Positions 21,840 through 51,527 of a stretch of 64,000 nt of DNA are shown one piece after another. The notes under the pieces are model-generated. The model saw only the letters and a program-made list of their open reading frames with translations, was not told where the DNA came from and ran no database searches. Position numbers and translations under genes: made by a program. The first letter of the stretch is position 1. Every line of letters starts with the position of its first letter. The stretch is from an uncultured Alphaproteobacteria bacterium (lineage in GTDB: Bacteria; Pseudomonadota; Alphaproteobacteria; HIMB59; GCA-002718135): NCBI GenBank assembly GCA_902635455.1, contig CACPNW010000001.1:5214-69213 (forward strand). The letters are read 5' to 3'.

Positions 21840-22437
21840 ACCATTATTTGTTTCTTTTGAAGGACCTGAAGCGTCTGGAAAATCATCACAAATTATATTA
21901 TTAAAAAATTTTTTAATTAAAAATAAAATCCCTTATATAGTAACTCGAGAACCTGGTGGAACCATAATTTCTGAAAAACTTAGAAATATAATACTCCAAA
22001 AGAAAAATAATATCACTAATTTAGAAGAAATTTTATTATTAATGGCAGCTAGATTAAATCATATTAATCAAGTTATTGAACCAAATTTAAAAAAAGGAAA
22101 ATTAGTAATCTCTGATAGGTTTGCAGATTCAACTTTTGTTTATCAAGGCTTTGTTAATGGTTTTGGAATTAAAAAAATTCAAAAATTGCACAAAGATTTA
22201 TTAAATAATTTTCTACCTACCAAAACTTTTTTATTTAAACTTCCTTCTAACGAAATAATTAAAAGACTAAAAAAGCGTAAGATAAAAAATAAGTATGACA
22301 TTAAAGATATTCAATTTCATAATAAAATAGCATTAGGCTATAAACAAATATCTAATAGTAAACGTTTTACTTTAATAAATGGATTAATGAGTAAAGACAA
22401 AATACATAAAAAAATTTTAAAAACTCTAGGTTTATAA
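21826..22437 (+). CDS. tmk: thymidylate kinase
   Basis: P-loop FEGPEASGKS and a DRF motif. It overlaps the dac stop. Confidence 0.9.
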   Translation: MRRNKPLFVSFEGPEASGKSSQIILLKNFLIKNKIPYIVTREPGGTIISEKLRNIILQKKNNITNLEEILLLMAARLNHINQVIEPNLKKGKLVISDRFADSTFVYQGFVNGFGIKKIQKLHKDLLNNFLPTKTFLFKLPSNEIIKRLKKRKIKNKYDIKDIQFHNKIALGYKQISNSKRFTLINGLMSKDKIHKKILKTLGL

Positions 22438-22441
22438 ATTA

Positions 22442-23434
22442 ATGAATAATTTTTATGGATTTAATAATGAGAAAAAATATTTGATTGATAATTTTAAAAA
22501 CTATTCACTTTCAAATTCTATTATTTTGCATGGTGAAAAAGGTATAGGTAAGCAAACTTTTGTATTTAACTTAATAAAAGAATTTATTTCTTTTTCAGTA
22601 AAAGGTAGCAATTTATCTCATCACTTTAATTTAATTAATAATAATTCACATCCTAATATTAGATATTTATGTAGAGATTATGATACGAAAACTAACAAAG
22701 AAAAAAAATTTATCAGTATTGATCAGATTAGAAAATTACATAATTTTTTTTATGAATCTTCATTAGATGGTTTAAATAAATTCATAGTTATTGATAGCGC
22801 TGATGATTTGAATCATAGTTCTGCTAATAGTTTGTTAAAATTGTTGGAGGAACCTAAAAAAAATATATTTATCTTTTTAATATCCCATCAATTTTCATCA
22901 ATTTTATCTACGATTAGATCTAGATGTTTGAAGATTAGATTTCACAAGCATGATTTCGCAACCTTTAGCAAAATAATTACTGAAAAATTAGAGGATATTG
23001 AAGATGATATGATTAAATTTTTATTTGATATTTCAAATGGATCTCCGGGTATTGCTCTGGAATTACAAAATTATGAAATTTTAGAATTTTATAATGAAAT
23101 TTTAATTTTTTTAGTAAATAATAAAAGTATTACTAAAAACCAATTTGAATTTTCAAATAAATTTTCAAAATTTGATAATGATAAATTTAAAATATTTTTA
23201 TCGTTATTAAAATTTGTTCTTATAAATTTATATAAAATTAAACTTGGTATTAATTTAAAAGATCAATATCTTTATGATAATTACTTAAATTTAGTAAAGA
23301 GTTCTGATAATATTTCTCAAAATACTATTTTTAATAGTCTTGAGTACTTGATTATAAATGAAAATGATTTATTCGCTTATAATCTTGATAAAAAATTATT
23401 TCTTTTAAATTTTTTTGCTCAAGTAGATAATTAA
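22442..23434 (+). CDS. holB: DNA polymerase III subunit delta prime
   Basis: AAA+ clamp-loader pattern (GEKGIGKQT, LLKLLEEP, SRC motif IRSRCLK) in the conserved tmk-holB-metG order. Confidence 0.8.
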   Translation: MNNFYGFNNEKKYLIDNFKNYSLSNSIILHGEKGIGKQTFVFNLIKEFISFSVKGSNLSHHFNLINNNSHPNIRYLCRDYDTKTNKEKKFISIDQIRKLHNFFYESSLDGLNKFIVIDSADDLNHSSANSLLKLLEEPKKNIFIFLISHQFSSILSTIRSRCLKIRFHKHDFATFSKIITEKLEDIEDDMIKFLFDISNGSPGIALELQNYEILEFYNEILIFLVNNKSITKNQFEFSNKFSKFDNDKFKIFLSLLKFVLINLYKIKLGINLKDQYLYDNYLNLVKSSDNISQNTIFNSLEYLIINENDLFAYNLDKKLFLLNFFAQVDN

Positions 23435-23435
23435 G

Positions 23436-24956
23436 ATGACAACTTTTTATGTTACTACTCCTATTTATTATGTAAATGATAAACCTCATATAGGTCATGC
23501 ATATACAACCATTGCTTGTGATATTCTTTCTAGATATCATAAGTTAAAAGGTCATGATGTTTATTTTTTAACAGGCACAGACGAACACGGCCAAAAAGTA
23601 GAAAAGGCTGCTAAAGAATCTTCTTTAGATACAAAAGATTTTGTAAATAAAATGTCAGAAAATTTTAAAAATTTAATTTCATTTTTAGGTTGTGACATTG
23701 ATGATTTTATTAGAACAACAGAAATACGACATATAGAAGCAGCACAACACTTGTGGAACAAACTTAATGATAATAAACAAATTTATTTATCAAATTATGA
23801 AGGGTGGTATTCAGTTAGAGATGAAGCTTTTTATTCAGAGTCAGAATTAATTAAAAAAGATAATTCTTTTTTTACTGATAGCGGATCTCCAGTTGAATGG
23901 CTTAAAGAAGAAAGTTATTTTTTTAAATTATCTTTATGGGAAGAAAAATTATTAGATTTTTATGAAAAATATCCAGAATCTATACAACCTAAAACACGTT
24001 ATAATGAAGTTATTAGCTTTATAAAAAGTGGTTTAAAAGATTTATCCATTTCTAGAACTACTTTTAAATGGGGAATTCCTGTTCCAAATAATTCAAATCA
24101 CGTAATGTATGTATGGATTGATGCTTTGTGCAATTACCTGACTTCTATTGGCTATCCTGATGTCTATGATAGTAAATTTGTAAAATATTGGCCTGCAACT
24201 CATATAGTTGGTAAAGATATTCTAAGATTTCATGCAATATATTGGCCTGCTTTTCTTATGGCTGCAGATATTGAGCCTCCTAAAAAAATATTTGCACATG
24301 GCTGGTGGACTAATGAAGGGCAAAAAATTTCTAAATCTATAGGTAATGTAATTGATCCCTATGATATAATTAATAAATACGGACTTGATCAAATTCGCTT
24401 TTTCTTATTCCGTGAAGTTCCTTTTGGAAATGATGGTGATTTTTCAAAAAATGCAATAGCAAATCGTATAAATGCAGACCTTTCTAATAATTATGGTAAT
24501 TTAGTCCAACGTATTTGTTTGTTTGCAGTTAAAAACTGTAATTCTCTAGTTGATGTCTCTAAAAAATATACTGATTCAGATAATGAATTATTAAAATTTT
24601 GTGAATTTAACTTTTCAAATTATTCGAATTATATGGAATCTCAGCAAATTGATAAAGCATTAAAAAGTATATTTGAAATATTATCTAAAACTAATTCATA
24701 TGTTGATGAACAAGCTCCATGGGAATTAAAGAAAACTAATGCCAATAGAATGAATGATGTATTATTTATAACTCTTAACATTATAAAATTTACTTCTTTG
24801 ATGTTACTCCCAATTATTCCAAAGAGTGCAAATAAAGCTTTAGATATACTTAATATTAATTTAAATGAAAGAAATTTTAGTTTTATGAATATTAAAAATC
24901 AAAATAAATTTCAAATTTTAAATCCAAAACCTATATTTCCTCGAATTGATAAGTGA
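23436..24956 (+). CDS. metG: methionine--tRNA ligase
   Basis: HIGH (PHIGHAY) and KMSKS-type (KISKS) class I motifs. 506 aa, the short form. Confidence 0.95.
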   Translation: MTTFYVTTPIYYVNDKPHIGHAYTTIACDILSRYHKLKGHDVYFLTGTDEHGQKVEKAAKESSLDTKDFVNKMSENFKNLISFLGCDIDDFIRTTEIRHIEAAQHLWNKLNDNKQIYLSNYEGWYSVRDEAFYSESELIKKDNSFFTDSGSPVEWLKEESYFFKLSLWEEKLLDFYEKYPESIQPKTRYNEVISFIKSGLKDLSISRTTFKWGIPVPNNSNHVMYVWIDALCNYLTSIGYPDVYDSKFVKYWPATHIVGKDILRFHAIYWPAFLMAADIEPPKKIFAHGWWTNEGQKISKSIGNVIDPYDIINKYGLDQIRFFLFREVPFGNDGDFSKNAIANRINADLSNNYGNLVQRICLFAVKNCNSLVDVSKKYTDSDNELLKFCEFNFSNYSNYMESQQIDKALKSIFEILSKTNSYVDEQAPWELKKTNANRMNDVLFITLNIIKFTSLMLLPIIPKSANKALDILNINLNERNFSFMNIKNQNKFQILNPKPIFPRIDK

Positions 24957-25741
24957 TAGATTCTCATTGTCATTTAAATTTCCCATCGATAAAACAAAAT
25001 ATTAATGAAATAATTATTAATTCTCAAAAAAATAAAATTAATACAATTTTATCAATAAATACTAATCCTGATGAATTTGATGATCATTTAAATTTAATTA
25101 ATAATTATGAATTTGTTTACATATCTTATGGTTTGCATCCAGAAAATGTTAAGGACAAAATTAAATTTGAAGTTGAACAAATACTTTTAAATTGCCAAAA
25201 TAGAAAAGTTATTGGTATTGGTGAAACTGGTCTGGATTTTTATCATTCAACTGAATTTAAAAAAAAACAATATGAAATTTTTGAAAATCATATCGAAGCA
25301 TCAATAACTAGTAAATTGCCCTTAATTATTCACCAAAGAAATTCAGAAAACGAAATCATAGAAGTAATTAAATCATATTTAAATTCATATGATTTATCTA
25401 TAGTTTTTCATTGTTTTACAGGATCAAAAAAGCTTTTTGATTTTTGTATGGATAACAATTTTTATATTTCTTTATCTGGTATTATTACTTTTAAAAATGC
25501 TAATGAATTGAGAAATACTGTAAAAGAACTTAATAAAGATTTTTTATTAATTGAAACTGACAGTCCTTTTTTAGCCCCTGTACCTTTAAGAGGAAAATCA
25601 AACGAACCATCATATATTAAGCACATATATGAATATTTATCTCTTTTTTATGATATTTCTTTAGATGATTTAATTAAAATAACAGATAATAATTTTTACA
25701 AATTGTTTTCCAAAGCAAAAAGATATAGTGACTTTGAATGA
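24953..25741 (+). CDS. tatD: TatD-family metal-dependent hydrolase
   Basis: GTG start, N-terminal DSHCH, GETGLD and a C-terminal ETDSPFL motif. Confidence 0.9.
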   Translation: MIDSHCHLNFPSIKQNINEIIINSQKNKINTILSINTNPDEFDDHLNLINNYEFVYISYGLHPENVKDKIKFEVEQILLNCQNRKVIGIGETGLDFYHSTEFKKKQYEIFENHIEASITSKLPLIIHQRNSENEIIEVIKSYLNSYDLSIVFHCFTGSKKLFDFCMDNNFYISLSGIITFKNANELRNTVKELNKDFLLIETDSPFLAPVPLRGKSNEPSYIKHIYEYLSLFYDISLDDLIKITDNNFYKLFSKAKRYSDFE

Positions 25742-26490
25742 AGATAAGAATGCTAGGATGTGGAGGTTCATTTGGATCACCTTTGGCTTGGAATAGAAAT
25801 GGCAATATTGATATAAATAATAATAATAATTTTAGAACAAGATCTTCAATTCTAATTAATACTGATAATACTAATATACTGATCGATACAAGTCCTGATT
25901 TGAGACAACAACTATATAAAGCACAGTGCACAAGAATAGATGCAGTATTGTTTACTCACATCCACTCTGATCATACTGCTGGTCTCCCTGATATGAGAGC
26001 TATGTCTCTTATTAATGATAAAATAATACCAGCTTATATGCCTGACAATATGAAAAATGATATTTTATCACATTATAAATTTATTTTTAAAGGTGATAAA
26101 GATTATAAGCCGTTTATGAAAATTTGTAGTTTAAATAATTTTTTTTCAATTAATAATATTAAAATAGAAACTTTTAAACATAATCATGGATCTATTGATG
26201 TACAAACCTATAAAATTAATAATTTTGCTTATTCAACAGATTTAAAGAAATTTTATAACAATGATTTAGATAAGCTTAAAAATTTAGATTTATGGATTGT
26301 AGGACTCTTAAGAGATGAACCTCATCCTTCGCATGCTGGATTTGATCAAATTATGGAATATATTAATTACATTAAACCCAAAAAAACTATTTTCACCCAT
26401 ATGACAGCTTTATTAGATGAAAAAAAATTAAGTTCCAAAATACCTAAAAACATAATTGTTGGTTATGATGGATTTGAAATTAACATATGA
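25738..26490 (+). CDS. MBL-fold metallo-hydrolase (PhnP/PqqB-like)
   Basis: THIHSDH metallo-beta-lactamase signature. 250 aa. Confidence 0.75.
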   Translation: MKIRMLGCGGSFGSPLAWNRNGNIDINNNNNFRTRSSILINTDNTNILIDTSPDLRQQLYKAQCTRIDAVLFTHIHSDHTAGLPDMRAMSLINDKIIPAYMPDNMKNDILSHYKFIFKGDKDYKPFMKICSLNNFFSINNIKIETFKHNHGSIDVQTYKINNFAYSTDLKKFYNNDLDKLKNLDLWIVGLLRDEPHPSHAGFDQIMEYINYIKPKKTIFTHMTALLDEKKLSSKIPKNIIVGYDGFEINI

Positions 26491-27434
26491 AAGATAAGAA
26501 TATTGGCTTTATTGGTTTGGGCAATTTAGGCTCAAGAGTAGCCAATAATATTTTAAAAAGTGGTTTTAATTTATTTATTAATGATCTTGATAAAAAAAAA
26601 TCAAATAAATTAATTAAATCAGGGGCTATATGGTGCTCATCTTTACATGAACTTTCTTCTAAGACTACAATTATTATAACGTGTCTGCCTTCACCAGAAT
26701 CTGTTAACAAAGTTTTAAATAATTTACTTCCTCATCTTAATAAAAATCATTTATGGGTAGAAATGAGTACTACCGATGAATCTGAAATGATTAGATTAGC
26801 AAATTTATGTAGTGAAAAAAATATTCAAACTTTAGAGGCACCTCTAACCGGTGGTCAACATAAAGCAGAATCTGGAAATATATCAATTTTAGTTGGAGGG
26901 TTAAGAAAAAATTTTGATAGAGCTTTCCCCATTTTATCTTCTATTGGTCATAAAATTTTATATTGTGGAATCTTGGGAAGTGCATCGACTTTAAAAGTAG
27001 TAACAAATTATTTAGCTTCAATAAATTTATTAGCTCTTGGAGAAGCATTAATGGTTTGTAAAAAATATGGATTAGACTTAGCAACATCATATCATGGTAT
27101 TAAAATAAGTTCAGGCAATAGTTTTGTTCATGAAACTGAGTCTCAAGTTATTTTAAATGGATCATATGATGTTGGTTTTACAATGGATTTAGTTTGCAAA
27201 GATGTGGGTTTATTTGATAAATTAACTGATAAATTTAATATTCCAGCAGATATAAGTAAATTGATGAAAAAAATATTTGATGAAGGTAAACATAAGTATG
27301 GAGATCGTTCTTTAAGTACCAGTATTGTCAAAAGAATTGAAGATTATTGTGAATTATCACTAAGGGCATCCGGTTTTCCACGTACATTATTAGATACTGA
27401 TAAGAAAAAGAAAGGTATTGAAATTAAGTTTTAA
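26487..27434 (+). CDS. NAD(P)-dependent oxidoreductase, 3-hydroxyisobutyrate dehydrogenase family
   Basis: N-terminal Rossmann GFIGLGNLG and a GSASTLKVVTN-type catalytic region. Confidence 0.8.
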   Translation: MKDKNIGFIGLGNLGSRVANNILKSGFNLFINDLDKKKSNKLIKSGAIWCSSLHELSSKTTIIITCLPSPESVNKVLNNLLPHLNKNHLWVEMSTTDESEMIRLANLCSEKNIQTLEAPLTGGQHKAESGNISILVGGLRKNFDRAFPILSSIGHKILYCGILGSASTLKVVTNYLASINLLALGEALMVCKKYGLDLATSYHGIKISSGNSFVHETESQVILNGSYDVGFTMDLVCKDVGLFDKLTDKFNIPADISKLMKKIFDEGKHKYGDRSLSTSIVKRIEDYCELSLRASGFPRTLLDTDKKKKGIEIKF

Positions 27435-27439
27435 TTTAT

Positions 27440-28390
27440 ATGAATATTGATACAATTACCCCAGAGGACGATCCTCGCAATCCTTCTTATAATTACAAAA
27501 ATATTATTATGGATCATGTAGAAAATACAGATTTATTTAATAGTTATATAAAAAGTAATTCATTAAAACAAGATTTTAAAGGTACGATATGGGGTGAAGG
27601 GCCTTGTTATATTCCTCATAAAAAAATGTTAATATGGAGCGATATTCCAAATAATAGGATGTTAAAATTAATTGATGGCAATGTATCAGAATTTTTAAAT
27701 CCTTCAAATTTTTCTAATGGAAACACATTAGACAATAATAGTAATTTAATTTCTTGTTCTCATGGTGGTAGGTGCGTTCATAAAATTGATGATGATTTAA
27801 ATATAGTCACTTTAGTAAGTGAATATAGTGGTAAAAAATTAAATTCTCCAAATGATGTATGCGTAAAATCTGATAATACCATTTGGTTTACAGACCCACC
27901 ATATGGAATACTATCAGATTATGAAGGTTATCCTGGTAAACAAGAATATGGAGGAAATTACGTTTTTAAGTATGATCCGGATAATAATAATTTAGAAATA
28001 GTAACTAAAGAATTAAATAGACCAAATGGCATAACTTTTTCAAGTAATGAAAAAAAACTATATGTTTCTGATACTGGAGAAGGGATAAAACATTTATATG
28101 TTTTTGATATTGATGAGAAAAATAATATTTATAACAAAAAATTAGTTTACGATTTTAAACCTTATTTTTCAGATGGTTTTAGATCTGACATAGATGGTAA
28201 TATTTGGACAAGTGCAGGCAAGGCTATAAAATGCTTTAACAAGGACAATGAATTAATTGGGCAAATTTTAGTACCTGAATTAGTTTCTAATTTAGAATTT
28301 GGAGGAGTAGAAGGTAATATATTGTATATTACTGCTACTAGCTCACTTTATTCTCTAGAATTAAATCAAATTGGGGCAAAGTATAAATGA
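27440..28390 (+). CDS. SMP-30/gluconolactonase/LRE-family protein
   Basis: Six-blade propeller pattern (EGPCY, NDV..D..G.IWFTDP, PNGI.FS, LYV.DT). Confidence 0.8.
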   Translation: MNIDTITPEDDPRNPSYNYKNIIMDHVENTDLFNSYIKSNSLKQDFKGTIWGEGPCYIPHKKMLIWSDIPNNRMLKLIDGNVSEFLNPSNFSNGNTLDNNSNLISCSHGGRCVHKIDDDLNIVTLVSEYSGKKLNSPNDVCVKSDNTIWFTDPPYGILSDYEGYPGKQEYGGNYVFKYDPDNNNLEIVTKELNRPNGITFSSNEKKLYVSDTGEGIKHLYVFDIDEKNNIYNKKLVYDFKPYFSDGFRSDIDGNIWTSAGKAIKCFNKDNELIGQILVPELVSNLEFGGVEGNILYITATSSLYSLELNQIGAKYK

Positions 28391-28731
28391 GTGAAAAATT
28401 AGATTCTAAAAAATGTGAACCTTGTACAGGTAATACACCTAAACTTAATCAAGTTGAAATAACTAAATATTTATCTGAACTAGATGATTGGACTGTAAAC
28501 AATGAACAAGAAATGATTTTTAAAAAATATAAATTTAAATCTTTTAAACAAGCCTTAAATTTTACTAATATAATTGGTGAATTAGCAGAATCAGAAGGTC
28601 ATCATCCTGATATTTCTTTAGGTTGGGGATATGTCTTAGTAATGCTTCATACACACGCTATAAAAGGTTTATCATTAAACGATTTTGTTTTAGCTTCTAA
28701 AATTGATATTTTGAATAATTCTAAAAATTAA
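28387..28731 (+). CDS. 4a-hydroxytetrahydrobiopterin dehydratase-like protein
   Basis: 114 aa with the EGHHPD active-site motif. Confidence 0.85.
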   Translation: MSEKLDSKKCEPCTGNTPKLNQVEITKYLSELDDWTVNNEQEMIFKKYKFKSFKQALNFTNIIGELAESEGHHPDISLGWGYVLVMLHTHAIKGLSLNDFVLASKIDILNNSKN

Positions 28732-32316: not shown

Positions 32317-33288
32317 ATGAAATATGATTACCTTGATAGAAACTTAGCTTTAGAAGCAGTTAGAGTTACAGAATTAGCAGCTTTATCAAGTTCAATGCAT
32401 ATGGGTAGAGGAAATGAAAAATCTGCTGATCAAGCTGCAGTAAATGCAATGAGGCAATTTTTAAATAATTTGTCAATTTCAGGCACAGTAGTTATAGGAG
32501 AGGGTGAAAGGGATGAGGCTCCAATGCTTTATATAGGTGAAAAAGTTGGTAAGGGAGGGCCAAAAATTGATATTGCACTTGATCCACTTGAAGGCACAAC
32601 CATAACAGCAGAAGGAGGTGAAAATGCTTTATCTGTATTAGCTATGGGTGAAGAGGGGAGTTTCTTACATTGTCCTGATATATACATGCAAAAAATTGCT
32701 TATGGAAAAAATTATGAAGATTTATCAATTGATCCAAATGAACCTTCAGCAGATATTGTTAGAAAATTTTCTAAATATTCAAATATCAGTATAGAAAATG
32801 TTGTTGTATGCATTTTAGATAGACCTAGACATAGAGAATTAATTAAAAATGTTAGATCAACAGGTGCTAGAATTAAACTTATCCCAGATGGAGATGTAAG
32901 CGCTGTGATAGCCACTTCTATTGAAGATAGTGGAATAGATATTTATATGGGTACTGGAGGTTCACCAGAAGGTGTTTTAGGAGCGGCTGCCTTAAGATGT
33001 TTGGGAGGCAAAATTTATACTAAATTAGTTTTTGATAATGATGAATCATTAGAGAGATCTAAAGATATGGGAATTAAAGATAAAGATTTTATATATCAAA
33101 CAAACGATTTGGCAAAAGGGGATGTCATGTTTTCGGCAACTGGTGTTACTGATGGAACAATGCTTAAAGGTGTTTATTTTAAAAGAAATTTTGCAACTAC
33201 TCATTCAGTAGTTATGCGTTCAAAAACCAGTACTGTAAGATATATAAAAGCAAATCATAATTTAAGTAAAAAATCAATTATCCAGTGA
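32317..33288 (+). CDS. glpX: class II fructose-1,6-bisphosphatase
   Basis: 323 aa with AVNAM, DPLEGT and the GlpX-typical C-terminal region. Confidence 0.93.
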   Translation: MKYDYLDRNLALEAVRVTELAALSSSMHMGRGNEKSADQAAVNAMRQFLNNLSISGTVVIGEGERDEAPMLYIGEKVGKGGPKIDIALDPLEGTTITAEGGENALSVLAMGEEGSFLHCPDIYMQKIAYGKNYEDLSIDPNEPSADIVRKFSKYSNISIENVVVCILDRPRHRELIKNVRSTGARIKLIPDGDVSAVIATSIEDSGIDIYMGTGGSPEGVLGAAALRCLGGKIYTKLVFDNDESLERSKDMGIKDKDFIYQTNDLAKGDVMFSATGVTDGTMLKGVYFKRNFATTHSVVMRSKTSTVRYIKANHNLSKKSIIQ

Positions 33289-35439: not shown

Positions 35440-35538
35440 ATGATTATTGTTTGTTTTTTAAGATTTATAATATTATATTATTTTTACTTATTGCACGCAA
35501 AGGCAATAAGTAAATTGATTAAAGGAAACTTTAATTAG
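35440..35538 (+). CDS. candidate 32-codon hydrophobic mini-ORF (leader peptide or small membrane peptide)
   Basis: ATG 35440 to TAG 35536-35538 encodes MIIVCFLRFIILYYFYLLHAKAISKLIKGNFN. It overlaps hairpins 1 and 2 of the structured region and has no clear SD. Confidence 0.25.
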   Translation: MIIVCFLRFIILYYFYLLHAKAISKLIKGNFN

Positions 35539-35600
35539 TTTATATCGGGAGGAAATGCACGATATAGAAGAAAGACCTAGCTTGCTGGGTCTTTTTTTTT
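35483..35600 (+). promoter_or_regulatory. structured RNA element: three stem-loops plus an intrinsic terminator, class unknown
   Basis: Hairpin 1 is 35483-35494/35503-35514 (12 perfect bp, loop ACGCAAAG). Hairpin 2 is 35518-35535 (7 bp, GAAA loop). Hairpin 3 is 35541-35566 (7 bp, loop GGAGGAAATGCA). The terminator then ends 16 nt before the deaminase ATG. Confidence 0.5.
35571..35600 (+). terminator. rho-independent terminator
   Basis: Stem AAAGACCTAG/CTGGGTCTTT with one G-T wobble and loop CTTG, followed by a T run ending at 35600. Confidence 0.7.
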
Positions 35601-36198: not shown

Positions 36199-36232
36199 TC
36201 TACAAATTTGTAATATAAAGATATTTATTATT

Positions 36233-36369
36233 ACGGGAGATACTGCTTTAATGCAGAGCCGAAGGAGCAACGACCCGGAATCTCTCAGGCAAAAGGACCG
36301 TTAAATAGACTCTGGAAAAGAGTTAGGGCTCTACCGAAGGAGTAAAAACTCTCAGGTAAATAGACAGAG
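36233..36369 (+). promoter_or_regulatory. tandem glycine riboswitch
   Basis: Two aptamers each carry the conserved cores: GGGAGA...GCCGAAGGAGCAA...CTCTCAGGCAAAAGGACCG and CTCTGGAAAAGAG...CTACCGAAGGAGTAA...CTCTCAGGTAAATAGACAGAG. They sit directly upstream of gcvT. Confidence 0.9.
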
Positions 36370-44162: not shown

Positions 44163-44220
44163 AATACTCGATTTTGAATTTTAACTTTTTTATTTTTAAA
44201 AATAATGATAAATATCTATC

Positions 44221-45054
44221 ATGGGAATAATTACAGATATAATCCTACCATTAGCTTTAGCTTTTATAATGTTTTCATTAGGATTAGGTTTAACACAAAA
44301 TGATTTTTTAAGAATAGTTAAAAAGCCAAAAGAATTTTTATTAGGCTTATTATCACAAGTAATTATCCTTCCCATAGTTGGTTTGATTTTAGTCTTGCTA
44401 ATTCCTATGCCTATGGAAATTGCTATTGGAGTAATGATAATTGCTGCTGCACCTGGAGGAGTAACTTCAAATGTTTTAACATCTTTTGCAAAGGGTGATG
44501 TGGCTTTGTCTATTTCTTTAACTGCAGTAATAAGCATTTTATCTGTTGTATCAATTCCAATAGTTTTGTCCTTATCATTATCACTTCTCGATAAAGGCAA
44601 TATTTCAGATATTTCTCTTTTTGATATAGCGTTAAAAATGTTTTTGATAGTTACTATACCTGTAGTTGTTGGAGTTATATTCAATAATCTTTTAAAATCA
44701 TTTCAAAAAATTGCAAAAAATATTTCAACAATATTATTTTTCTTAGTTCTACTGGGAGCTATTTTAGCTGAAAGAGAAAATATAGTATCATATTTTGCCC
44801 AAGCCGGATTGGTAACTTTAATTTTAAATATTATTATGATGGTTATCGCTTATTATTTAAGTAAATTTTTTATATCAAATATTAGTCAACAAAGAGCAAT
44901 TACAATAGAATGTGGACTTCAAAATGGAACTTTAGCCATAGTTGTTGCGAATGTATTTTTTGATGGAGGTATTTATTTAATTCCTGCAGCTACCTATAGT
45001 TTGATTATGTATTTAACTGCTTTGCCATATATATATTTCTTAAGAAGAAATTAA
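44221..45054 (+). CDS. bile acid:sodium symporter (BASS)-family transporter
   Basis: 277-aa polytopic protein with AAAPGG and ECGLQN motifs typical of BASS/SBF. Confidence 0.78.
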   Translation: MGIITDIILPLALAFIMFSLGLGLTQNDFLRIVKKPKEFLLGLLSQVIILPIVGLILVLLIPMPMEIAIGVMIIAAAPGGVTSNVLTSFAKGDVALSISLTAVISILSVVSIPIVLSLSLSLLDKGNISDISLFDIALKMFLIVTIPVVVGVIFNNLLKSFQKIAKNISTILFFLVLLGAILAERENIVSYFAQAGLVTLILNIIMMVIAYYLSKFFISNISQQRAITIECGLQNGTLAIVVANVFFDGGIYLIPAATYSLIMYLTALPYIYFLRRN

Positions 45055-45834
45055 TAAAGGAAAAGTATCAGAATCTAGAATATCACCATTTTTTAATTTT
45101 AGCTCAGGAAAAGGAGGGGACATTTCACCCTTTCTTTTAATATAAGTAGCATCGTCACCAGTAAACCTTACTGAAAATGCCCTTCTTCTGTTTTTAGATA
45201 TATTTTCAGGAGCTCCATGTATAGTAGAAAATTTAAAAGCTACCGCATCTCCTAAATTAAATTTCCATGAGAGAATTTTATATTTATCTTTATTATCTTC
45301 AATATTAGGTATGCTTTGAAATTCTTCATCTTTATGCTCATATTTATTACCAAAAAATTTTGTGGGTAAAAATTGTTTATTCCAATTATGCGAGCCTTCA
45401 ATAAATTCTGGTGAAACATTCTTTAAAACTGGATCCAATGGAATCCAGATACTGCAATTATCTTTGCCATTAACACAATAATATGATTGATCTTGATGCC
45501 ATGGAGTTTTTTTTTGAGATTCTGCTTCCTTTATCAAAACATGTTCATGGAACAAGTTAACCTTTTTTGATTGCATTAATTCTTTTGCAATTCTCGCAAT
45601 ACCTGAATTAAAAATAAAATTTTGATACTCTCTAATATTTTGCCAATTGCAGTAGTCATCATAAAATATTTCTTTGTTATTTTTTTTTTCATAAACACAT
45701 TTGTATTTACTTGGATTTTTAAAATTTAATTCTACACCCTTTTGAAGTTCTTTTATCCACTTTTTATCAATTATGTTTTTTAAAAATACTACTCCGTAGT
45801 TTGAGAATTCTTTAATGTTTTTATTACTAAGCAT
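45040..45834 (-). CDS. phytanoyl-CoA dioxygenase (PhyH)-family Fe(II)/2OG oxygenase
   Basis: WHQDQSY (HxD), a distal His in STIHGAP and an Arg in RRAFSVRF. Confidence 0.75.
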   Translation of the reverse strand: MLSNKNIKEFSNYGVVFLKNIIDKKWIKELQKGVELNFKNPSKYKCVYEKKNNKEIFYDDYCNWQNIREYQNFIFNSGIARIAKELMQSKKVNLFHEHVLIKEAESQKKTPWHQDQSYYCVNGKDNCSIWIPLDPVLKNVSPEFIEGSHNWNKQFLPTKFFGNKYEHKDEEFQSIPNIEDNKDKYKILSWKFNLGDAVAFKFSTIHGAPENISKNRRRAFSVRFTGDDATYIKRKGEMSPPFPELKLKNGDILDSDTFPLLISS

Positions 45835-46596
45835 TTAATTTTTTATTTTATATCCTTTAGAAAAACTATAAATAATTATAGCTAAACAAGAAAATAAAAA
45901 GAAAAATATTGTTATCAAGCTTGTAAAAATACTAACATCAGCTATTTCATAAAAACTCCACCTAAAGCCACTTACTAGATACAAGACAGGATTAAGCAAT
46001 GAAACTTTTTGCCAAAACTCTGGTAACATATCAATACTATAAAAAGAGCCTCCTAAAAAAACTAAAGGAGTGATTATAAGAATTGGTATTAACTGTAACT
46101 TTTCAAAATTATCAGCCCAAATTCCAATCATAAAACCAAAAAGCGCAAAAGTTACTGAAGTCAAAACTAAAAAAAATATCATTATAAAAGGGTGTTCTAT
46201 ATTTAAATCAACAAATATACCTGCTGTAGCTATAATTATGCATCCAATAATTAATGATTTTGTTGCTGCTGCTCCTACAAAACCAATAATTATTTCAAAA
46301 CTTGAAAGTGGTGCTGCTAATAATTCATATACAGTATTAGTAAATTTAGGAAAAAAAATACCAAATGATGCATTACTTATACTTTGAGTTAAAATTGTAA
46401 GCATAATCATTCCAGGAACTATAAATGAACCGTAACTAACACCATTTATTTCTGTTATTCTAGAGCCTATAGCTGATCCAAAAACAACAAAATATAATGA
46501 AGTGGAAATTATTGGAGATATCAAACTTTGAAACAAAGTTCGTCTCATACGATCCATTTCATGATAATAAATTGCCTTAAGGCCGTACCAATTCAT
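45835..46596 (-). CDS. ABC-2 type transporter permease
   Basis: 253 aa with 6 TM segments in an ABC-2 layout. It overlaps the upstream ATPase gene by 20 nt. Confidence 0.85.
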   Translation of the reverse strand: MNWYGLKAIYYHEMDRMRRTLFQSLISPIISTSLYFVVFGSAIGSRITEINGVSYGSFIVPGMIMLTILTQSISNASFGIFFPKFTNTVYELLAAPLSSFEIIIGFVGAAATKSLIIGCIIIATAGIFVDLNIEHPFIMIFFLVLTSVTFALFGFMIGIWADNFEKLQLIPILIITPLVFLGGSFYSIDMLPEFWQKVSLLNPVLYLVSGFRWSFYEIADVSIFTSLITIFFFLFSCLAIIIYSFSKGYKIKN

Positions 46597-47521
46597 TTTT
46601 TGACTCCTTTAATAAATTTAAAAATATTGACTCTAAAGAACTTTGTTCAGTAGTGATATCTTTTAGTTGAATTCCATTATTTTTTAATTCAGAAAGCAAA
46701 GCAGTAATACCAGTTCGCTCAGATTTAGTATCATAAAAATAAATTATAGTTTTTCCCTTATTACTAATTTGTAAGTTATAAATTTCTAAACTTTTAGGAA
46801 TTCTATCAATTTTTGAATTTATTTCTATTTTAAGTATTTTTTGACCTAATTTTTTAATTAAACGACTTTTTTCATCTACAATAATTATTTTACCATTATT
46901 TATAATTCCAACTCTATCAGCTATTTCTTCAGCCTCTTCTATATAGTGTGTTGTTAAAATAATAGTAACTCCTTTTTGTTTTAATCTTTTAACAACTTTC
47001 CACATGTCCTTTCTTAATTCAACATCTACACTGGCAGTAGGTTCGTCTAAAAATAAGACTTTGGGCTCATGCGATAAAGCTTTTGCTATCAAGACTCTTC
47101 TTTTCATGCCACCAGATAATTCTCTTAATTTGCTATCTTTTTTATCCCAGAGTGAAAGTTCTTTTAGTAAGGATTTTATATATTTGTGATTAGGAGATTT
47201 TCCATATAACCCTCTTGAATAATTTACATTATTCCAAACAGTTTCAAAAGCTTCTAAATTTAACTCTTGCGGAACAATTCCAATTAAAGATCTCGTTTGT
47301 CTATAATTTTTAATAATATCCAAATCATTCACTTTAATTGTACCAGAGTCAAAATTCAAAATTCCACAAATAGTATTAATTAAAGTTGATTTACCAGCAC
47401 CATTAGGGCCTAAAAGAGCAAATATTTCTCCTTCATCAATATTCAGATTTAATTCATCTAACGCTTTTAATTTTCTATTATAAAATTTTGAAACATTATC
47501 TATTTTAATTATTTGATTCAT
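46577..47521 (-). CDS. ABC transporter ATP-binding protein
   Basis: Walker A GPNGAGKST, signature LSGGMKRR and Walker B VLFLDEPT. Confidence 0.92.
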   Translation of the reverse strand: MNQIIKIDNVSKFYNRKLKALDELNLNIDEGEIFALLGPNGAGKSTLINTICGILNFDSGTIKVNDLDIIKNYRQTRSLIGIVPQELNLEAFETVWNNVNYSRGLYGKSPNHKYIKSLLKELSLWDKKDSKLRELSGGMKRRVLIAKALSHEPKVLFLDEPTASVDVELRKDMWKVVKRLKQKGVTIILTTHYIEEAEEIADRVGIINNGKIIIVDEKSRLIKKLGQKILKIEINSKIDRIPKSLEIYNLQISNKGKTIIYFYDTKSERTGITALLSELKNNGIQLKDITTEQSSLESIFLNLLKESKNELVRP

Positions 47522-47529
47522 ATTTTTAA

Positions 47530-48327
47530 TTAATTATAATCTAGCTCTATAGAGCCTAATGATCCAAAATCAGCTTTTATCTTAGTGCCTTTTGTTAACA
47601 TAAGAGCTTTAGTGCAAGATCCAGTTGAAATGTATTGACCTTTTAACATTGGCTCCCCTTTTAAAGCTAAAGTATTTATTAACCAAATTACTGCATTTAA
47701 TGGGTTTTTTAGAACGTTATTAGTATTACCTACTTCACAAATATTAGAATCAACAAAAATTTTAATCTCATGGTTGTTTAAATCAATTTTATTTAATGAA
47801 TATAAATTTTCATTTCGTACCCAATAATCAGAAGCGCCATTAGTAGCTATTAAGTTAAATGCACCAATTTTGTTTATTGGTTTTAAAAATCTAAAATCTA
47901 CAATTTCTACTGCACATAGCATCCCGTCTATTAAAGTTTCAATATCTTCAAGACTAAATGGGGCAAGGGTAATATTTATATCTTCTTTTATTCTAAATCC
48001 TATTTCTGGCTCCAAATATGGTTTATGAAAATTTTTTGATTTTAATGATTTTTTATTAATTTCAGAAAATCTAGTAAAAAGATTACCATAAAAAGGTTGA
48101 TTTATTCCCACTTGTTTAGCTGCTTCTTTATTAGTAACTCCAATTTTTTTCCCAAGAACATCATTATTATGTAGTTTTAAATATAAAATTTTCAATTCAT
48201 CCTGAATTTTATAAGCTTCATCTAAATTTAATGGCTTATATTCTGTATCTAAACTTTCTAAACCAGTTTTATTTAATTTGTGTTCAAATAAAATTTTTGC
48301 AGCTTCTGAATATTTATCTAAACTCAT
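47530..48327 (-). CDS. FAH-superfamily hydratase/decarboxylase (2-keto-4-pentenoate hydratase-like)
   Basis: 265 aa with an AYKIQDEL N-terminal motif and EPEIGF (metal-binding ExE). Overall it resembles MhpD/XylJ. Confidence 0.65.
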   Translation of the reverse strand: MSLDKYSEAAKILFEHKLNKTGLESLDTEYKPLNLDEAYKIQDELKILYLKLHNNDVLGKKIGVTNKEAAKQVGINQPFYGNLFTRFSEINKKSLKSKNFHKPYLEPEIGFRIKEDINITLAPFSLEDIETLIDGMLCAVEIVDFRFLKPINKIGAFNLIATNGASDYWVRNENLYSLNKIDLNNHEIKIFVDSNICEVGNTNNVLKNPLNAVIWLINTLALKGEPMLKGQYISTGSCTKALMLTKGTKIKADFGSLGSIELDYN

Positions 48328-48329
48328 TA

Positions 48330-49043
48330 TTAAAGTGAATATTTATTCATGTTATTATAAATTTTTAAACTTTCTTTATATATATTTTGATATTTTGAAG
48401 GTACAACTGTATTTGAATCATTGTATTTGGTAAAAGTATTAGACTTGTTTACTTGTTCATACCAAATAACACTCCAAATACCATCGCTATTTCTAGGCCC
48501 TTTAGGCCAATTTAACATTTTATTTGAAAATTTTATATTAAGTCTTTCACATAATTTCCTAATAATTTCTTTTGGATTTTTTAAAATATAATCTGAATTT
48601 ATAACTATCGGATTAAAATCATATTTTGATTTAACAATTTTAAAAATTTCAAATTGTTTCTTAAAACCAATATCCCTAATATCTAAAATTTCATTTTTTT
48701 TTATATAAGAATTTATAACTTTGCCAGGATGTCTTATCAAAAAGCAGTTTTTTCCATTTTTTAGCCAATCAAGATTATTTACATCTATAAGATGATGAGT
48801 CATATGTTTTTGATAATAAATTTTTTTATTTTTAGGTAATTTTGTTATTTTATTTAAAATTTCCTTAATATCATTAGGATAAGCATCAATAATTTTATTA
48901 TACATAGGGTGTTTTAGTCCAGTATTTTTTAAATAGAATGAATAAAAAGGTTCATCTAAAACTTCAGTGTCACTTCTATTTTCAAAAGAACGCATTAAAG
49001 CGGTGCTTAAATTTCGAGGACCTGACCACATATAAATAATCAT
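48330..49043 (-). CDS. sulfotransferase-fold (P-loop-like) protein, function unknown
   Basis: N-terminal SGPRNLST resembles the 5'-PSB loop of sulfotransferases. It is translationally coupled to the aminotransferase upstream. Confidence 0.4.
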   Translation of the reverse strand: MIIYMWSGPRNLSTALMRSFENRSDTEVLDEPFYSFYLKNTGLKHPMYNKIIDAYPNDIKEILNKITKLPKNKKIYYQKHMTHHLIDVNNLDWLKNGKNCFLIRHPGKVINSYIKKNEILDIRDIGFKKQFEIFKIVKSKYDFNPIVINSDYILKNPKEIIRKLCERLNIKFSNKMLNWPKGPRNSDGIWSVIWYEQVNKSNTFTKYNDSNTVVPSKYQNIYKESLKIYNNMNKYSL

Positions 49044-49939
49044 TATTTATTTATTAATTGATTATATAAATTAAGAATTTTAAAAGTTAAATTATCTTTT
49101 TTAATAGAAAATCTTTTATTATTAATTTTATTAATTGGAACTACACCGCCAAATGTTCCTGTTGCAAAAGCTTCATCAGCCCTCATAACATCTTTTAATT
49201 TAAAGTTTTTTTCTTTAACTTTGATTTTATTAAGCTTACAAATTTCTATAACTTTTTTTCTAGTAATACCATTTACACAAAATTTTCCTTTGGATGTAAA
49301 AACTGTCTTATTTTTAACGTAAAAAAAATGTGTACTATTATTTGTTGCTATATTATTTTTTATATCAAGCATTAATGCTTCATCTGCACCTTTCTTTGAT
49401 GCTTCTATACAAGCTAAAATACAATTTAATTTACTAAGAGAGTTTATTTGAGGGTCTTGTACATTTTTGGGTCCTCTAATTATACTAACAGTTACTAGTT
49501 TTAATCCTCTTTTGTATATTTTATTATCAGGTTTTTTATATTCAGGAATTATTATTATTGTAGGTTTAGAAATTGTTACTTTAGGTGATTGATATGGTGT
49601 TGATTTAATTCCTCTAGATACTATTAATCTTAAATGAGCATCAGTTTTCATTTTATTTATTCTAATTGTTTTTAATAGTAAATTTTTCAAAGATTTTTGT
49701 GAAAGATGAATTTTTAAATTAATTTTTTTGGCATCTTCATAAAGTCGTTTAATGTGATCATTTAAAAATAAAAATTTATTATTATGGTATCTTAATCCAT
49801 CCCATACACCGTCACCTAATAACACAGATGAATCAAAAACAGATATATTAGCATTTTTTCGATTATAAAATTTTCCATTAACATATATTTTAATGTTATT
49901 ATTTCTTTTATCTTTTAAAAATTCGTGACTAGAAGGCAT
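49043..49939 (-). CDS. class IV (BCAT/D-amino-acid type) aminotransferase
   Basis: 298 aa of fold-type IV pattern (VFDSSVLLGDGVWDGLR, ATGTFGGVVPI). Confidence 0.85.
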   Translation of the reverse strand: MPSSHEFLKDKRNNNIKIYVNGKFYNRKNANISVFDSSVLLGDGVWDGLRYHNNKFLFLNDHIKRLYEDAKKINLKIHLSQKSLKNLLLKTIRINKMKTDAHLRLIVSRGIKSTPYQSPKVTISKPTIIIIPEYKKPDNKIYKRGLKLVTVSIIRGPKNVQDPQINSLSKLNCILACIEASKKGADEALMLDIKNNIATNNSTHFFYVKNKTVFTSKGKFCVNGITRKKVIEICKLNKIKVKEKNFKLKDVMRADEAFATGTFGGVVPINKINNKRFSIKKDNLTFKILNLYNQLINK

Positions 49940-49953
49940 AATTATCTATAAAT

Positions 49954-49985
49954 CAAATAAAGGGTAGGGGTCTACCCTTTATTTG
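49954..49985. terminator. 14-bp perfect hairpin, probable bidirectional/intrinsic terminator
   Basis: CAAATAAAGGGTAG GGGT CTACCCTTTATTTG has a GC core flanked by T/A-rich tracts on both strands. It lies 14 nt upstream of the aminotransferase ATG on the minus strand. Confidence 0.55.
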
Positions 49986-49986
49986 C

Positions 49987-50046
49987 AAGAATGTAGACAT
50001 AATTGTATTGAGTGGAACAGAGAAAAAATTATTATGCTACATTCTT
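49987..50046 (-). other. long imperfect hairpin immediately downstream of metY
   Basis: AAGAATGTAG (49987-49996) pairs with CTACATTCTT (50037-50046). An inner CATAAT/ATTATG stem follows after a 1-nt bulge, with an apical loop of about 27 nt. Confidence 0.45.
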
Positions 50047-50060: not shown

Positions 50061-51353
50061 TTATAATGCTTGTTCTATATCTTCTAAAATATCGTCAATA
50101 TGTTCAATACCAACAGATAATCTAATATATCCAGGAGTTACACCGGTTTTTAGTTGATCTTCTTTACTTAATTGTGAGTGTGTAGTTGATGCAGGATGTA
50201 TGGCTAAAGTTCTTGCATCACCAATATTAGCAACGTGATAGATTAATTTTAAATTATCAATAAATTTTTTGCCAGATTCAAAACCATCTTTAAGTTCAAA
50301 TCCTACTAATGGTCCTTTTCCATACTCTAAATATTTATCACTCCTTTCTTTATATACACCTATTTGAAAACCAGGATAAATAACTTTTGAAATTTTATTA
50401 TTTTTTAAAAGATAATCTGCAACTTTGTATGCATTCTTTTGATGTTGTTTGAATCTTAATGGCAATGTTTCTAGTCCTTGAATAAAATTAAAAGCATTTG
50501 TTGGTGATAAACAAGAACCCATATCTCTAAGTAATACAAATCTTGCCCTAACTGCAAAAGTTATATTTGCGCCTAACACTTCTGGAACTACTTTTCCTAA
50601 TATCCATCCCCAGTAATTAGGATCAGGTTTATTATATAAAGGTTGTTTATCAGGAAATTTTGTCCAATCAAATTTACCGGAATCTACTATTATTCCTCCT
50701 ATAGAAGTACCATGACCTCCTATCCATTTAGTTAATGAATGCACAACTATAGAAGCGCCATGTTTAATCGGTTTGCATGTTATAGGTGCTGCTGTATTGT
50801 CTACAATAAGAGGAATTCCTTTTTGTTTTCCAATTTTCGCAACTTCTTCTATTGGAAAAACATTTAATTTAGGGTTTGGTAAAGTCTCAGCATAATATCC
50901 TCGTGTTTTTTCATCTGTTAATTTTGCGAAATTCATAGGATCCTCTGGATCTGCAAATCTTACCTCTATACCCAATTGATTAAAAGTATTTGCAAATTGA
51001 TTCCAAGTACCTCCGTATAAATCGGTAGAAGAAACGATATTATCACCTGCTTGACATAAATTTTGTATTGCAAAAGCTGTTGCTGACTGACCTGAAGATA
51101 CAGCTACAGCAGCTAATCCTCCTTCTAATTGAGCAATTCTTTCTTCAAGGACAGCAGTCGTAGGATTCATTATACGAGTATAAATATTTCCTAATTCTTT
51201 TAATGAAAATAAATTACTAGCATGTTCTTGATTATTAAATTGATAACTAGTTGTTTGATAAATTGGCACAGCAACTGAATTAGTCGAAGCATCATTTCTA
51301 AATGAACCACCATGAACGGCTATTGTTTCTGGGTGATAAGATGTTGTAGTCAT
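50061..51353 (-). CDS. metY: O-acetylhomoserine aminocarboxypropyltransferase (sulfhydrylase)
   Basis: 430-aa Cys/Met-metabolism PLP enzyme with the PLP lysine in HSLTKWIGGHG and the YTRIMNPT motif. Confidence 0.9.
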   Translation of the reverse strand: MTTTSYHPETIAVHGGSFRNDASTNSVAVPIYQTTSYQFNNQEHASNLFSLKELGNIYTRIMNPTTAVLEERIAQLEGGLAAVAVSSGQSATAFAIQNLCQAGDNIVSSTDLYGGTWNQFANTFNQLGIEVRFADPEDPMNFAKLTDEKTRGYYAETLPNPKLNVFPIEEVAKIGKQKGIPLIVDNTAAPITCKPIKHGASIVVHSLTKWIGGHGTSIGGIIVDSGKFDWTKFPDKQPLYNKPDPNYWGWILGKVVPEVLGANITFAVRARFVLLRDMGSCLSPTNAFNFIQGLETLPLRFKQHQKNAYKVADYLLKNNKISKVIYPGFQIGVYKERSDKYLEYGKGPLVGFELKDGFESGKKFIDNLKLIYHVANIGDARTLAIHPASTTHSQLSKEDQLKTGVTPGYIRLSVGIEHIDDILEDIEQAL

Positions 51354-51356
51354 TTT

Positions 51357-51416
51357 ATACCTCTTTCTTTAGTATTTTTCGTTTTCTGGTGTACAAACTG
51401 AAAGATCAAATACCAT
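51357..51416 (-). promoter_or_regulatory. candidate H-type pseudoknot leader (SAM-II/SAM-V-like riboswitch) sequestering the metY SD
   Basis: In the minus-strand leader GGUAUUUGAUCUUUCAG...GAAAAAUACUAAAGAAAGAGGUAUAAAAUG, GUAUUU pairs with AAAUAC (P1). The loop UCUUUC pairs with the 3' GAAAGA that overlaps the SD AGAGG. Confidence 0.4.
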
Positions 51417-51527
51417 ATAAATAAAATATAATTCTTTTTTATCAGTGTATATAGAAAATATTTATAAAATATTCTAAATTATAGTATTAAAATAGAATAA
51501 AATTCTATATATTTAAGTAAATATAAA

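Follow-up and report, generated by a model that had tools for sequence, protein, structure and literature searches.

The sulfotransferase domains of CurM and OLS sulfonate a hydroxyl group and thereby convert it into a leaving group for a following elimination. Among aminotransferase-fold proteins, ColD and E1 are fold-type I pyridoxamine 5'-phosphate (PMP) enzymes that carry a histidine in place of the Schiff-base lysine, are still catalytic, and, with PMP as cofactor, remove a beta substituent adjacent to a carbonyl. Here we analyze a block of six genes on the minus strand (45040-49939) of a 64,000-nucleotide stretch of contig CACPNW010000001.1, hereafter the window, in which a class IV aminotransferase-like gene (AT4*), whose product lacks this lysine, adjoins a gene of the Sulfotransfer_5 family (Sulfo5). 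The original prediction for this DNA had read the six genes as serving one function and knew of no textbook pathway matching the set; none does match. Gene neighborhoods and homology establish AT4* and Sulfo5 as a linked or fused pair of apparently ancient origin, while the six genes as a whole are not co-conserved.

Co-conservation of AT4* and Sulfo5

Relatives of Sulfo5 were collected in a one-genome-per-species scan, and the best 80 of at least 558 loci were used. These come from SAR11-like and other Alphaproteobacteria, Marinimicrobia, Verrucomicrobia, Chloroflexi and others, and all six proteins as well as the flanking genes were mapped in them. AT4 adjoined Sulfo5 on the same strand at 73 of the 80 loci, and contig edges explain four of the seven exceptions. 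This adjacency spans Alphaproteobacteria, Marinimicrobia, Verrucomicrobia, and one of the four Chloroflexi loci. The AT4 gene comes before Sulfo5 in Alphaproteobacteria and Marinimicrobia, and the order is reversed in Verrucomicrobia and at the single Chloroflexi locus with the pair. Co-conservation of the pair across bacterial phyla is strongly supported by these observations, and the proposal that the two proteins form a functional pair is borne out both by this linkage and by their fusion in eukaryotes.

The other four genes are confined to one clade. The hydratase gene followed Sulfo5 at 48 of 48 SAR11-like loci and at none of the 32 others, and joins the module as its third member in SAR11-like Alphaproteobacteria alone. 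Among the 80 loci the ABC transporter pair and the PhyH-family dioxygenase gene were restricted to the SAR11-like group, and at the 32 loci of other lineages none of the last four genes was found within 8 kb of the pair. Within the SAR11-like clade the interval between the hydratase and ABC ATPase genes is empty in the window, L001 and L002. It holds a DCC1-like gene in L003-L005, a DCC1-like and a PsiE-like gene in L008, and both of these plus a photolyase-related gene in L006, L012 and most SAR11. In L003 and L008 an intergenic spacer of 122-194 nt precedes the ABC gene. L046 retains AT4, Sulfo5 and the hydratase followed by entirely different genes, with neither the ABC pair nor PhyH. PhyH always abuts the permease gene within the SAR11-like clade, and the 20-nt overlap between the ATPase and permease genes of the window recurs in L012. 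Because genes are inserted and lost within the clade and only AT4-Sulfo5 is kept across phyla, this neighborhood analysis refutes a single six-gene unit by the criterion of the original prediction itself.

Clustering of the four genes on each side of 30 loci outside Alphaproteobacteria revealed no recurrent third partner, only lineage-specific synteny. An M1-type metallopeptidase (HExxH) considered as a cross-phylum neighbor was rejected, as the 'Legionellales' contig that carries it is nearly identical to a Marinimicrobia one. The metallopeptidase genes of L060 (PBJS01000001.1, a 'Legionellales' metagenome-assembled genome) and L054 (a Marinimicrobia single-amplified genome) are nearly identical and the L060 copy contains many X residues. 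L060 is probably a misbinned, low-quality Marinimicrobia contig.

AT4* lacks the Schiff-base lysine

AT4* (49043-49939) matched PF01063 over its full length (5.4e-40), and scored under every NCBIfam IlvE, DAAT and PabC cutoff. Its best score was to PRK08320, a branched-chain aminotransferase (BCAT) subfamily model (234.6 bits vs a cutoff of 363), and ilvE_I gave 177.8 vs 245.6. The closest PDB entry was 7Z79 (E 3e-65), followed by archaeal branched-chain transaminases. HMMER alignment placed the catalytic lysine of 5CM0 (PNIKSLNY) opposite Asn166 of AT4* (PQINSLSK). Asparagine also occupies this position in 7Z79 (RLNSHSR); 9J32 is the same protein with a lysine there, its depositors having targeted the same residue position. 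In a MAFFT alignment of 71 Sulfo5-linked AT4 proteins the residue is asparagine in 62, histidine in nine, and lysine in none. Lys170, four residues past Asn166, is not conserved, being leucine in the histidine type and arginine in 7Z79. Judged from its sequence, AT4* is no canonical transaminase. Since the catalytic lysine is missing, with asparagine or histidine in 71/71 paired proteins, the transamination step that had been assigned to this gene is doubtful, and for the same reason the name 'branched-chain amino acid aminotransferase' that public sources give to AT4* homologues is almost certainly wrong for this fold-type IV partner.

Other parts of the site are retained in AT4*, namely Trp46, Arg50, Arg65, His102, Arg104, Glu187, Thr226-Arg227 and Thr262. 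Arg65, Thr226-Arg227 and Thr262 correspond to the arginine and threonine residues that bind the phosphate of pyridoxal 5'-phosphate (PLP), and Glu187 to the acidic partner of the pyridine nitrogen. Invariant in 71/71 paired AT4 proteins are a tryptophan for Phe36, Arg40, the phosphate-binding arginine, a histidine for Tyr95, Arg97, and the T-R of an I-T-R motif; the pyridine-nitrogen site is Glu or Asp. That these site residues are conserved argues that AT4* has kept the ability to bind a carboxylate substrate and a PLP-like cofactor. The residue at the lysine position defines two subtypes. The asparagine subtype comprises the proteins of Alphaproteobacteria and Marinimicrobia and 7Z79. The histidine subtype (I-H-H-x-N-L) is that of nearly all eukaryotic fusions and of the Verrucomicrobia pairs, and the two groups have their gene or domain order in common.

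Lysine-less orthologues also occur without Sulfo5. No Sulfo5 gene neighbors that of 7Z79 (Variovorax paradoxus B4, P0271) or its Ralstonia and Uliginosibacterium orthologues; gene context led us to reject the 7Z79 gene as Sulfo5-paired. In these three betaproteobacterial genera the gene lies in a conserved operon, ABC_tran-AT4-SBP_bac_3-permease-permease-GntR/FCD (L081:5186-9964, L083:4102-8991, L084:4167-8886). The placement of the unpaired orthologues in polar-amino-acid ABC importer operons suggests that the lysine-less orthologues act on a class of imported compounds resembling polar amino acids. In Uliginosibacterium a Cys_Met_Meta_PP gene is located just upstream of the importer operon, as metY is in the window. 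A literature search found no functional paper on 7Z79/9J32 or on lysine-less fold-type IV proteins.

Sulfo5 resembles PAPS-dependent sulfotransferases

Sulfo5 (48330-49043) encodes a free-standing 237-aa protein that matched PF19798 (1.3e-52). It contains a candidate 5'-phosphosulfate-binding loop (Pro9-Arg10..Ser13-Thr14), a DEP motif (30-32), Lys79-His80, and a candidate 3'-phosphate-binding motif (Arg104..Ser112). Across 146 diverse standalone and fused members, Pro9, Arg10, Ser13, Thr14, Arg104, Pro106 and Ser112 are at least 94% conserved. The PRxxST loop, DEP, Lys79, RxPxxxxxS and a DGxW...WY motif are 92-100% conserved, and His80 is common yet under the 85% reporting threshold. The family profile matched the sulfotransferase domains of CurM (9.5e-06) and OLS over the 3'-phosphate-binding region, and the motifs of Sulfo5 align with 'PRSGST' and 'RHPYSVIES' of CurM. 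When an AF2 model (pLDDT 84.3) was searched with Foldseek, the top 16 PDB matches were all sulfotransferases (probability 1.00, TM 0.44-0.58). The best of these were the CurM and OLS domains, TPST1/2 and 3-OST (tyrosylprotein and heparan-sulfate sulfotransferases), and nucleotide kinases ranked lower. In motifs and predicted fold, Sulfo5 looks like an active enzyme dependent on 3'-phosphoadenosine 5'-phosphosulfate (PAPS).

Two loci, L046 and L051, have a canonical Sulfotransfer_1 gene (300 aa, PF00685 2.5e-19; 10711-11613 in both) inserted after Sulfo5 and before the hydratase, and it overlaps each of these neighbors by 4 nt. In one SAR11 subclade the module can thus carry two different sulfotransferases, and the predicted activity of the inserted gene reinforces the sulfation theme. 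Of seven SAR11-group genomes, five have cysC (not HIMB59 or HIMB114), all seven have cysQ, and none has cysH, cysI or cysJ (PMC5069961 Table 3); in the same table cysD/N are listed for HIMB59. Strains with cysC and cysQ and without cysH/I/J could therefore make PAPS and recycle 3'-phosphoadenosine 5'-phosphate but not assimilate sulfate. A PAPS-consuming sulfotransferase would explain why SAR11 retains cysC and cysQ. Our literature search found no functional study of PF19798/Sulfotransfer_5, of the plant fusion genes or of SAR11 sulfotransferases.

The two proteins are fused in eukaryotes

An exhaustive search of 1.84 billion cluster representatives for Sulfo5 relatives returned 2,949 (representative clusters, 50% identity), and more than 7,600 clusters at 90% identity were scored. 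One of the 2,949 is a choanoflagellate protein of 555 aa with a Sulfotransfer_5 domain followed by an Aminotran_4 domain. With this protein as the query, more than 100 fusions of 539-669 aa were recovered from land plants, liverworts, mosses, Ectocarpus, a haptophyte, choanoflagellates and other protists. The plant fusion that the original prediction had mentioned is real: 'branched-chain-amino-acid aminotransferase-like protein 1/2' consists of PF19798 and PF01063.

In two choanoflagellate-type fusions, P0222 and P0391, the AT4 site has decayed, for example with alanine for Trp36, glutamine or glutamate for His95, and glycine or asparagine at the lysine position, which suggests that selection on the AT4 domain has been relaxed in this lineage. 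Two further fusions, P0419 (922 aa, Brassica napus) and P0507 (961 aa, Diospyros lotus), have an additional PF10294 domain; they may be merged gene models or a real three-domain variant.

The remaining genes of the block

The third gene (47530-48327) encodes a putative 2-oxo-acid hydratase/decarboxylase of the MhpD/HpcG/NahK family (FAH fold). It had no Pfam match; the NCBIfam HpaH, DmpH, DmpE and MhpD models matched at 1e-27 to 1e-30, with approximately 100 bits vs equivalog cutoffs of at least 350. NahK (1e-20) and MhpD (3e-18) were matched in the PDB. Lys61 and Glu106/Glu108/Glu141 align with the family lysine and the E-x-E...E metal site.

The ABC transporter ATPase (46577-47521; PF00005 1.5e-35) is DrrA/NodI-like, with a match to TIGR01188 drrA of 1.6e-75 that is below the cutoff of that model. 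The ABC-2 permease (45835-46596; PF01061 2.8e-34) scored 244.2 bits vs a cutoff of 225 with NCBIfam PRK15066. The assignment to an exporter-type ABC-2 system was borne out by the permease score, the paired ATPase, and the lack of a solute-binding protein gene among the neighbors. The last gene (45040-45834) encodes a MysH-like PhyH-family Fe(II)/2-oxoglutarate dioxygenase (PF05721 6.6e-22, 79.3 bits vs a cutoff of 22). Its predicted triad, His113-x-Asp115...His206, and Arg216-218 align with MysH. Within 5 kb of PhyH there are no mycosporine biosynthetic genes, the neighbors being the ABC-2 exporter, a BASS symporter, a thioesterase and cysE/K. Profile searches (Pfam, NCBIfam) upheld the family assignments of all six genes.

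Gene packing in the window

The coordinates and strand of the six open reading frames were confirmed, as were their junctions, which range from a 20-nt overlap to an 8-nt gap. AT4* and Sulfo5 share base 49043 (TAATG, a 1-nt overlap), a 2-nt gap follows Sulfo5 and an 8-nt gap the hydratase, the ABC ATPase gene runs 20 nt into that of the permease (46577-46596), and the permease and PhyH genes abut at 45835/45834. In a crude gene call over the whole window, 95% is coding and same-strand genes are separated by a median of 2 nt, with 25 of 43 such junctions measuring 8 nt or less; a longer run of tight junctions lies at 20700-28731. The spacing of the six genes is not exceptional against these values, and close packing is the default of this genome and is no sign of a shared function. 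Where 95% of a genome is coding and the median gap is 2 nt, spacing is unusable for inferring operon function.

Overlaps between genes on opposite strands illustrate this extreme compaction. PhyH and the BASS-symporter gene converge and have 15 nt in common at the 3' ends (45040-45054), and several further opposite-strand pairs in the window overlap, for example at 4074-4077 and 33278-33288. Long antisense open reading frames opposite the BASS gene (44196-44684, minus strand) and opposite the ABC-2 permease gene (46070-46387, plus strand) are almost certainly not genes. The window has a GC content of approximately 26%. Upstream of a gene starting at 36375 are an IMES-4 RNA motif (35487-35566, plus strand, 100 bits) and a glycine riboswitch aptamer (36224-36310, plus strand, 66 bits). 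With its AT-rich composition and these two RNAs, the window fits a streamlined marine alphaproteobacterium of the HIMB59/MarineAlpha5/SAR11-like type.

The upstream hairpins belong to metY

Upstream of the block is a metY-like O-acetylhomoserine sulfhydrylase gene (Cys_Met_Meta_PP; 50061-51353, minus strand; PF01053 5e-119), and downstream are the BASS symporter, thioesterase, cysE and cysK genes. The 121-nt spacer between metY and AT4* folds far better than shuffled sequences (z = -6.25). It contains two hairpins on the minus strand. Hairpin 1 (49987-50046), 3' of the metY stop codon, has the stem AAGAATGTAG / CTACATTCTT and is conserved among relatives. Hairpin 2 (49948-49984) resembles an intrinsic terminator, AAATAAAGGGTAG-ACCC-CTACCCTTTATTT with a T-rich tail; from its end to the AT4* start codon there are 8 to 15 nt. 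Among the mapped loci metY lies upstream of AT4* only in the window, L002-L006 and L008. Both hairpins are kept in exactly these relatives, in which the hairpin 1 stem shows compensatory changes (AAGAACG/CGTTCTT), and both are absent from L001, L012 and L042, where there is no metY upstream. Because the hairpins are conserved only where metY lies upstream, their distribution and predicted folds assign them to the metY 3' end and its terminator and not to an operon leader. The claim that two strong hairpins precede the operon is therefore right about the hairpins and wrong about their tie to the block. A riboswitch or attenuator of the block was ruled out, as the hairpins have no Rfam match and co-occur with metY instead of AT4.

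A simple terminator scan missed hairpin 2 because its T-tract is interrupted; the same scan detected no internal terminator-like site in the block. The terminator lies so close to the AT4* start codon (8-15 nt) that read-through may supply transcription of the block, and all six genes may be co-transcribed. A promoter scan was uninformative (66 sites vs 59 +/- 7 in shuffles). The word TAGACC occurs at 49969-49974 (minus strand), and L001, L012 and L042, which have no metY hairpins, carry it as well, 25-45 nt ahead of the AT4 start. It may have a regulatory role or recur by chance.

The proximity of metY, cysE and cysK had been read as a link to sulfur-amino-acid metabolism. The neighbors are as described, but we dropped the link, as this proximity is confined to clade synteny and absent in other phyla. 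SAM-V riboswitches have been reported upstream of metY in Pelagibacter (PMC5069961); in the metY leader of the window (51354-51527, 174 nt) no Rfam SAM riboswitch matched at E <= 1. A divergent Lrp/AsnC regulator gene begins beyond this leader, at 51528. A study of sulfur limitation in HTCC1062 makes no mention of a sulfotransferase, aminotransferase or hydratase.

Discussion

The explanation that we favor on balance is that the block is a composite of three units and not one six-step pathway, and that at its core is a two-component AT4*/Sulfo5 enzyme, possibly with sulfation-assisted, lysine-independent chemistry. The composite architecture is the part that we hold with good confidence. Unit 1 would consist of AT4*, which has lost the lysine and kept the cofactor and carboxylate site, and Sulfo5, which has kept the PAPS motifs; the hydratase would have been added in SAR11-like Alphaproteobacteria, and a second, canonical sulfotransferase in one subclade. 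Unit 2 would be the YadH-type ABC-2 exporter and unit 3 the MysH-like Fe/2-oxoglutarate dioxygenase. Units 2 and 3 directly follow unit 1 here because the one to three unrelated intervening genes of most relatives are absent.

The sulfation-assisted chemistry is a tentative proposal, and somewhat unlikely as it stands. Sulfo5 would use PAPS for O-sulfonation of a hydroxylated amino-acid or 2-oxo-acid-like metabolite so that the hydroxyl becomes a leaving group. AT4*, with PLP or PMP bound non-covalently, would then perform an elimination or an amino transfer without an internal aldimine, and the hydratase would act on the resulting 2-oxo-enoate. Whether AT4* and Sulfo5 form a two-component enzyme with an undescribed type of reaction, present from ocean bacteria to land plants and accounting for cysC and cysQ in SAR11, is more doubtful still.

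Several points weigh against this interpretation. The chemistry is argued by analogy with CurM/OLS and LGS1, 'activating' sulfotransferases of which the last has a PDB title that describes 'sulfation-assisted' ring formation, and with ColD/E1. The fold-type IV partner could be catalytically dead. Sulfo5 is only modestly similar to sulfotransferases of solved structure (TM 0.55-0.58, 9-17% identity). The 80 loci, as the best of at least 558 relatives, are skewed to SAR11-like genomes. The six genes together with BASS, thioesterase and cysE/K are syntenic throughout the SAR11-like clade, and given this synteny and the constant abutment of PhyH and permease there may be a looser functional link between the units.

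The main rival to the proposed chemistry is that AT4* is a pseudoenzyme, that is, a ligand-binding, regulatory or scaffolding subunit of Sulfo5, with the chemistry carried out by Sulfo5 (and the hydratase in SAR11). The Schiff-base lysine is gone in the whole clade, its replacement being asparagine or histidine by subclade, the lysine at +4 is not conserved (leucine in the histidine type, arginine in 7Z79), and P0222 and P0391 show further decay of the site. Lysine-less aminotransferase-fold subunits that partner an active enzyme are also known in fold type I (Ser4/Ser5, PMC11726168). We nevertheless regard this role as unlikely. Seven cofactor- and substrate-site residues are invariant in 71/71 pairs and nearly all fusions, beyond what binding usually needs, although a sensor would fit too, and the orthologues without Sulfo5 sit in amino-acid importer operons in the manner of a catabolic enzyme. 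That Sulfo5 performs another group transfer in vivo, for example as a kinase, or binds a 3'-phospho-ADP compound such as CoA, seems to us quite improbable. Sulfotransferases share their fold with nucleotide kinases, adenylate and shikimate kinases are among the weaker Foldseek matches, no PF19798 member is characterized in the papers found, and PMC5069961 Table 3 lists no cysC for HIMB59, the closest type of cultured relative. Yet Sulfo5 has no Walker-A GxxxxGK[ST] and near-invariant PRxxST and RxPxxxxxS motifs instead, its top sequence and fold matches are all PAPS enzymes, and a canonical Sulfotransfer_1 gene has been inserted into the module in L046 and L051.

A single operon whose six products serve one pathway of amination, sulfation or phosphorylation, hydration and hydroxylation, with the product exported by the ABC-2 system, is improbable in our view. 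Insertions of DCC1-like, PsiE-like and photolyase-related genes split the hydratase from the ATPase in most relatives, some have the 122-194 nt spacers ahead of the ABC gene, L046 keeps the first three genes without ABC or PhyH, and within 8 kb of the pair, 0/32 loci of other lineages carry even one of the last four genes. Synteny is not specific here, since it extends just as well over the whole surrounding region, and tight spacing is the genome default. These points outweigh the contiguity of the six genes in the window, L001 and L002, where no gap exceeds 8 nt, their location within about 6.9 kb (AT4 start to PhyH end) in essentially every long-enough SAR11-like locus, the invariable abutment of PhyH and permease, and the negative result of the scan for terminator-like sites inside the block. 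It is barely conceivable that AT4 is a housekeeping IlvE in an accidental arrangement of ordinary genes. The public names and the BCAT subfamily model as best NCBIfam match speak for it, but AT4 is under every BCAT, DAAT and PabC cutoff and lacks the catalytic lysine, Phe36 is replaced by tryptophan and Tyr95 by histidine throughout the clade, and the Sulfo5 linkage and fusion are conserved across domains of life.

The three-unit reading that we prefer deflates the six-gene 'pathway' and makes the two-gene pair, abundant in the ocean and conserved into plants, the point of interest. The AT4*-Sulfo5 module is very common, occurs in essentially all SAR11-like loci examined, and has fused orthologues throughout plants; streamlined genomes retain little that is dispensable, and the module is kept there. 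All parts belong to known superfamilies, with homologues mis-named BCAT in databases, and this misnaming spreads into metabolic reconstructions of marine bacteria and plants. What is new, as judged by homology and gene linkage, is a lysine-less fold-type IV protein that is obligately coupled to an unstudied sulfotransferase family. If sulfation-assisted chemistry were true, it would give PAPS a role in organisms without sulfate assimilation and add a new reaction class for fold-type IV.

Comparison with known systems

The PRK15066 permease subfamily is presumably that of E. coli YadH, and with its ATPase we take the pair to be of the YadGH type. It resembles an exporter of this type in its paired ATPase, overlapping genes and lack of a binding-protein gene, but differs in that a dioxygenase gene follows the pair in the window. 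PhyH is similar over its full length (4e-31) to MysH of mycosporine-like amino acid biosynthesis (PDB 9C9N, 9PZE), with HxD...H and RRA kept, whereas it lies beside an ABC-2 exporter and has no mys genes nearby. The hydratase has full-length similarity to MhpD, HpcG and NahK of aromatic meta-cleavage pathways and retains their conserved lysine and E-x-E...E. It differs from them in being below all equivalog cutoffs and in its coupling to Sulfo5, with the ABC ATPase as the other neighbor; no meta-cleavage dioxygenase, aldolase or dehydrogenase gene was found at the locus.

The CurM and OLS sulfotransferase domains (PDB 4GBM, 4GOX) are the best profile and fold matches of Sulfo5 and have PRxxST and RxPxxxxxS in common with it. 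The identity is 13-17% at a TM of about 0.56-0.58, and these domains of polyketide synthases act on carrier-protein-bound substrates, whereas Sulfo5 is free-standing with a PLP-fold partner. As an analogy from fold type I, ColD and E1 resemble AT4* in having an aminotransferase fold in which the Schiff-base lysine is replaced, and would be a precedent for lysine-independent chemistry. They differ in their fold type, their nucleotide-sugar substrates and their histidine, AT4* being of fold type IV with an asparagine. The nearest solved structure, 7Z79/9J32 ('Aminotransferase, class 4', Variovorax paradoxus B4), shares this asparagine and the Trp, His and Arg site residues with AT4*, but has arginine rather than lysine at +4 and an importer operon without a Sulfotransfer_5 partner.

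The eukaryotic BCAT-like protein 1/2 is 32% identical to the window genes in its Sulfo5 domain and 28% identical in its AT4 domain. It has the Sulfo5 motifs and the AT4 signature of Trp36, Arg40, His95 and Arg97, and lacks the catalytic lysine. It is one polypeptide with Sulfo5 before AT4, whereas the window has two genes in the reverse order with a 1-nt overlap. At the lysine position the eukaryotic protein has histidine (I-H-H-x-N-L) and at the pyridine-nitrogen site aspartate, where the window protein has asparagine (INSLSK) and glutamate. This histidine and aspartate subtype is the one that the eukaryotic fusions have in common with the Verrucomicrobia pairs.

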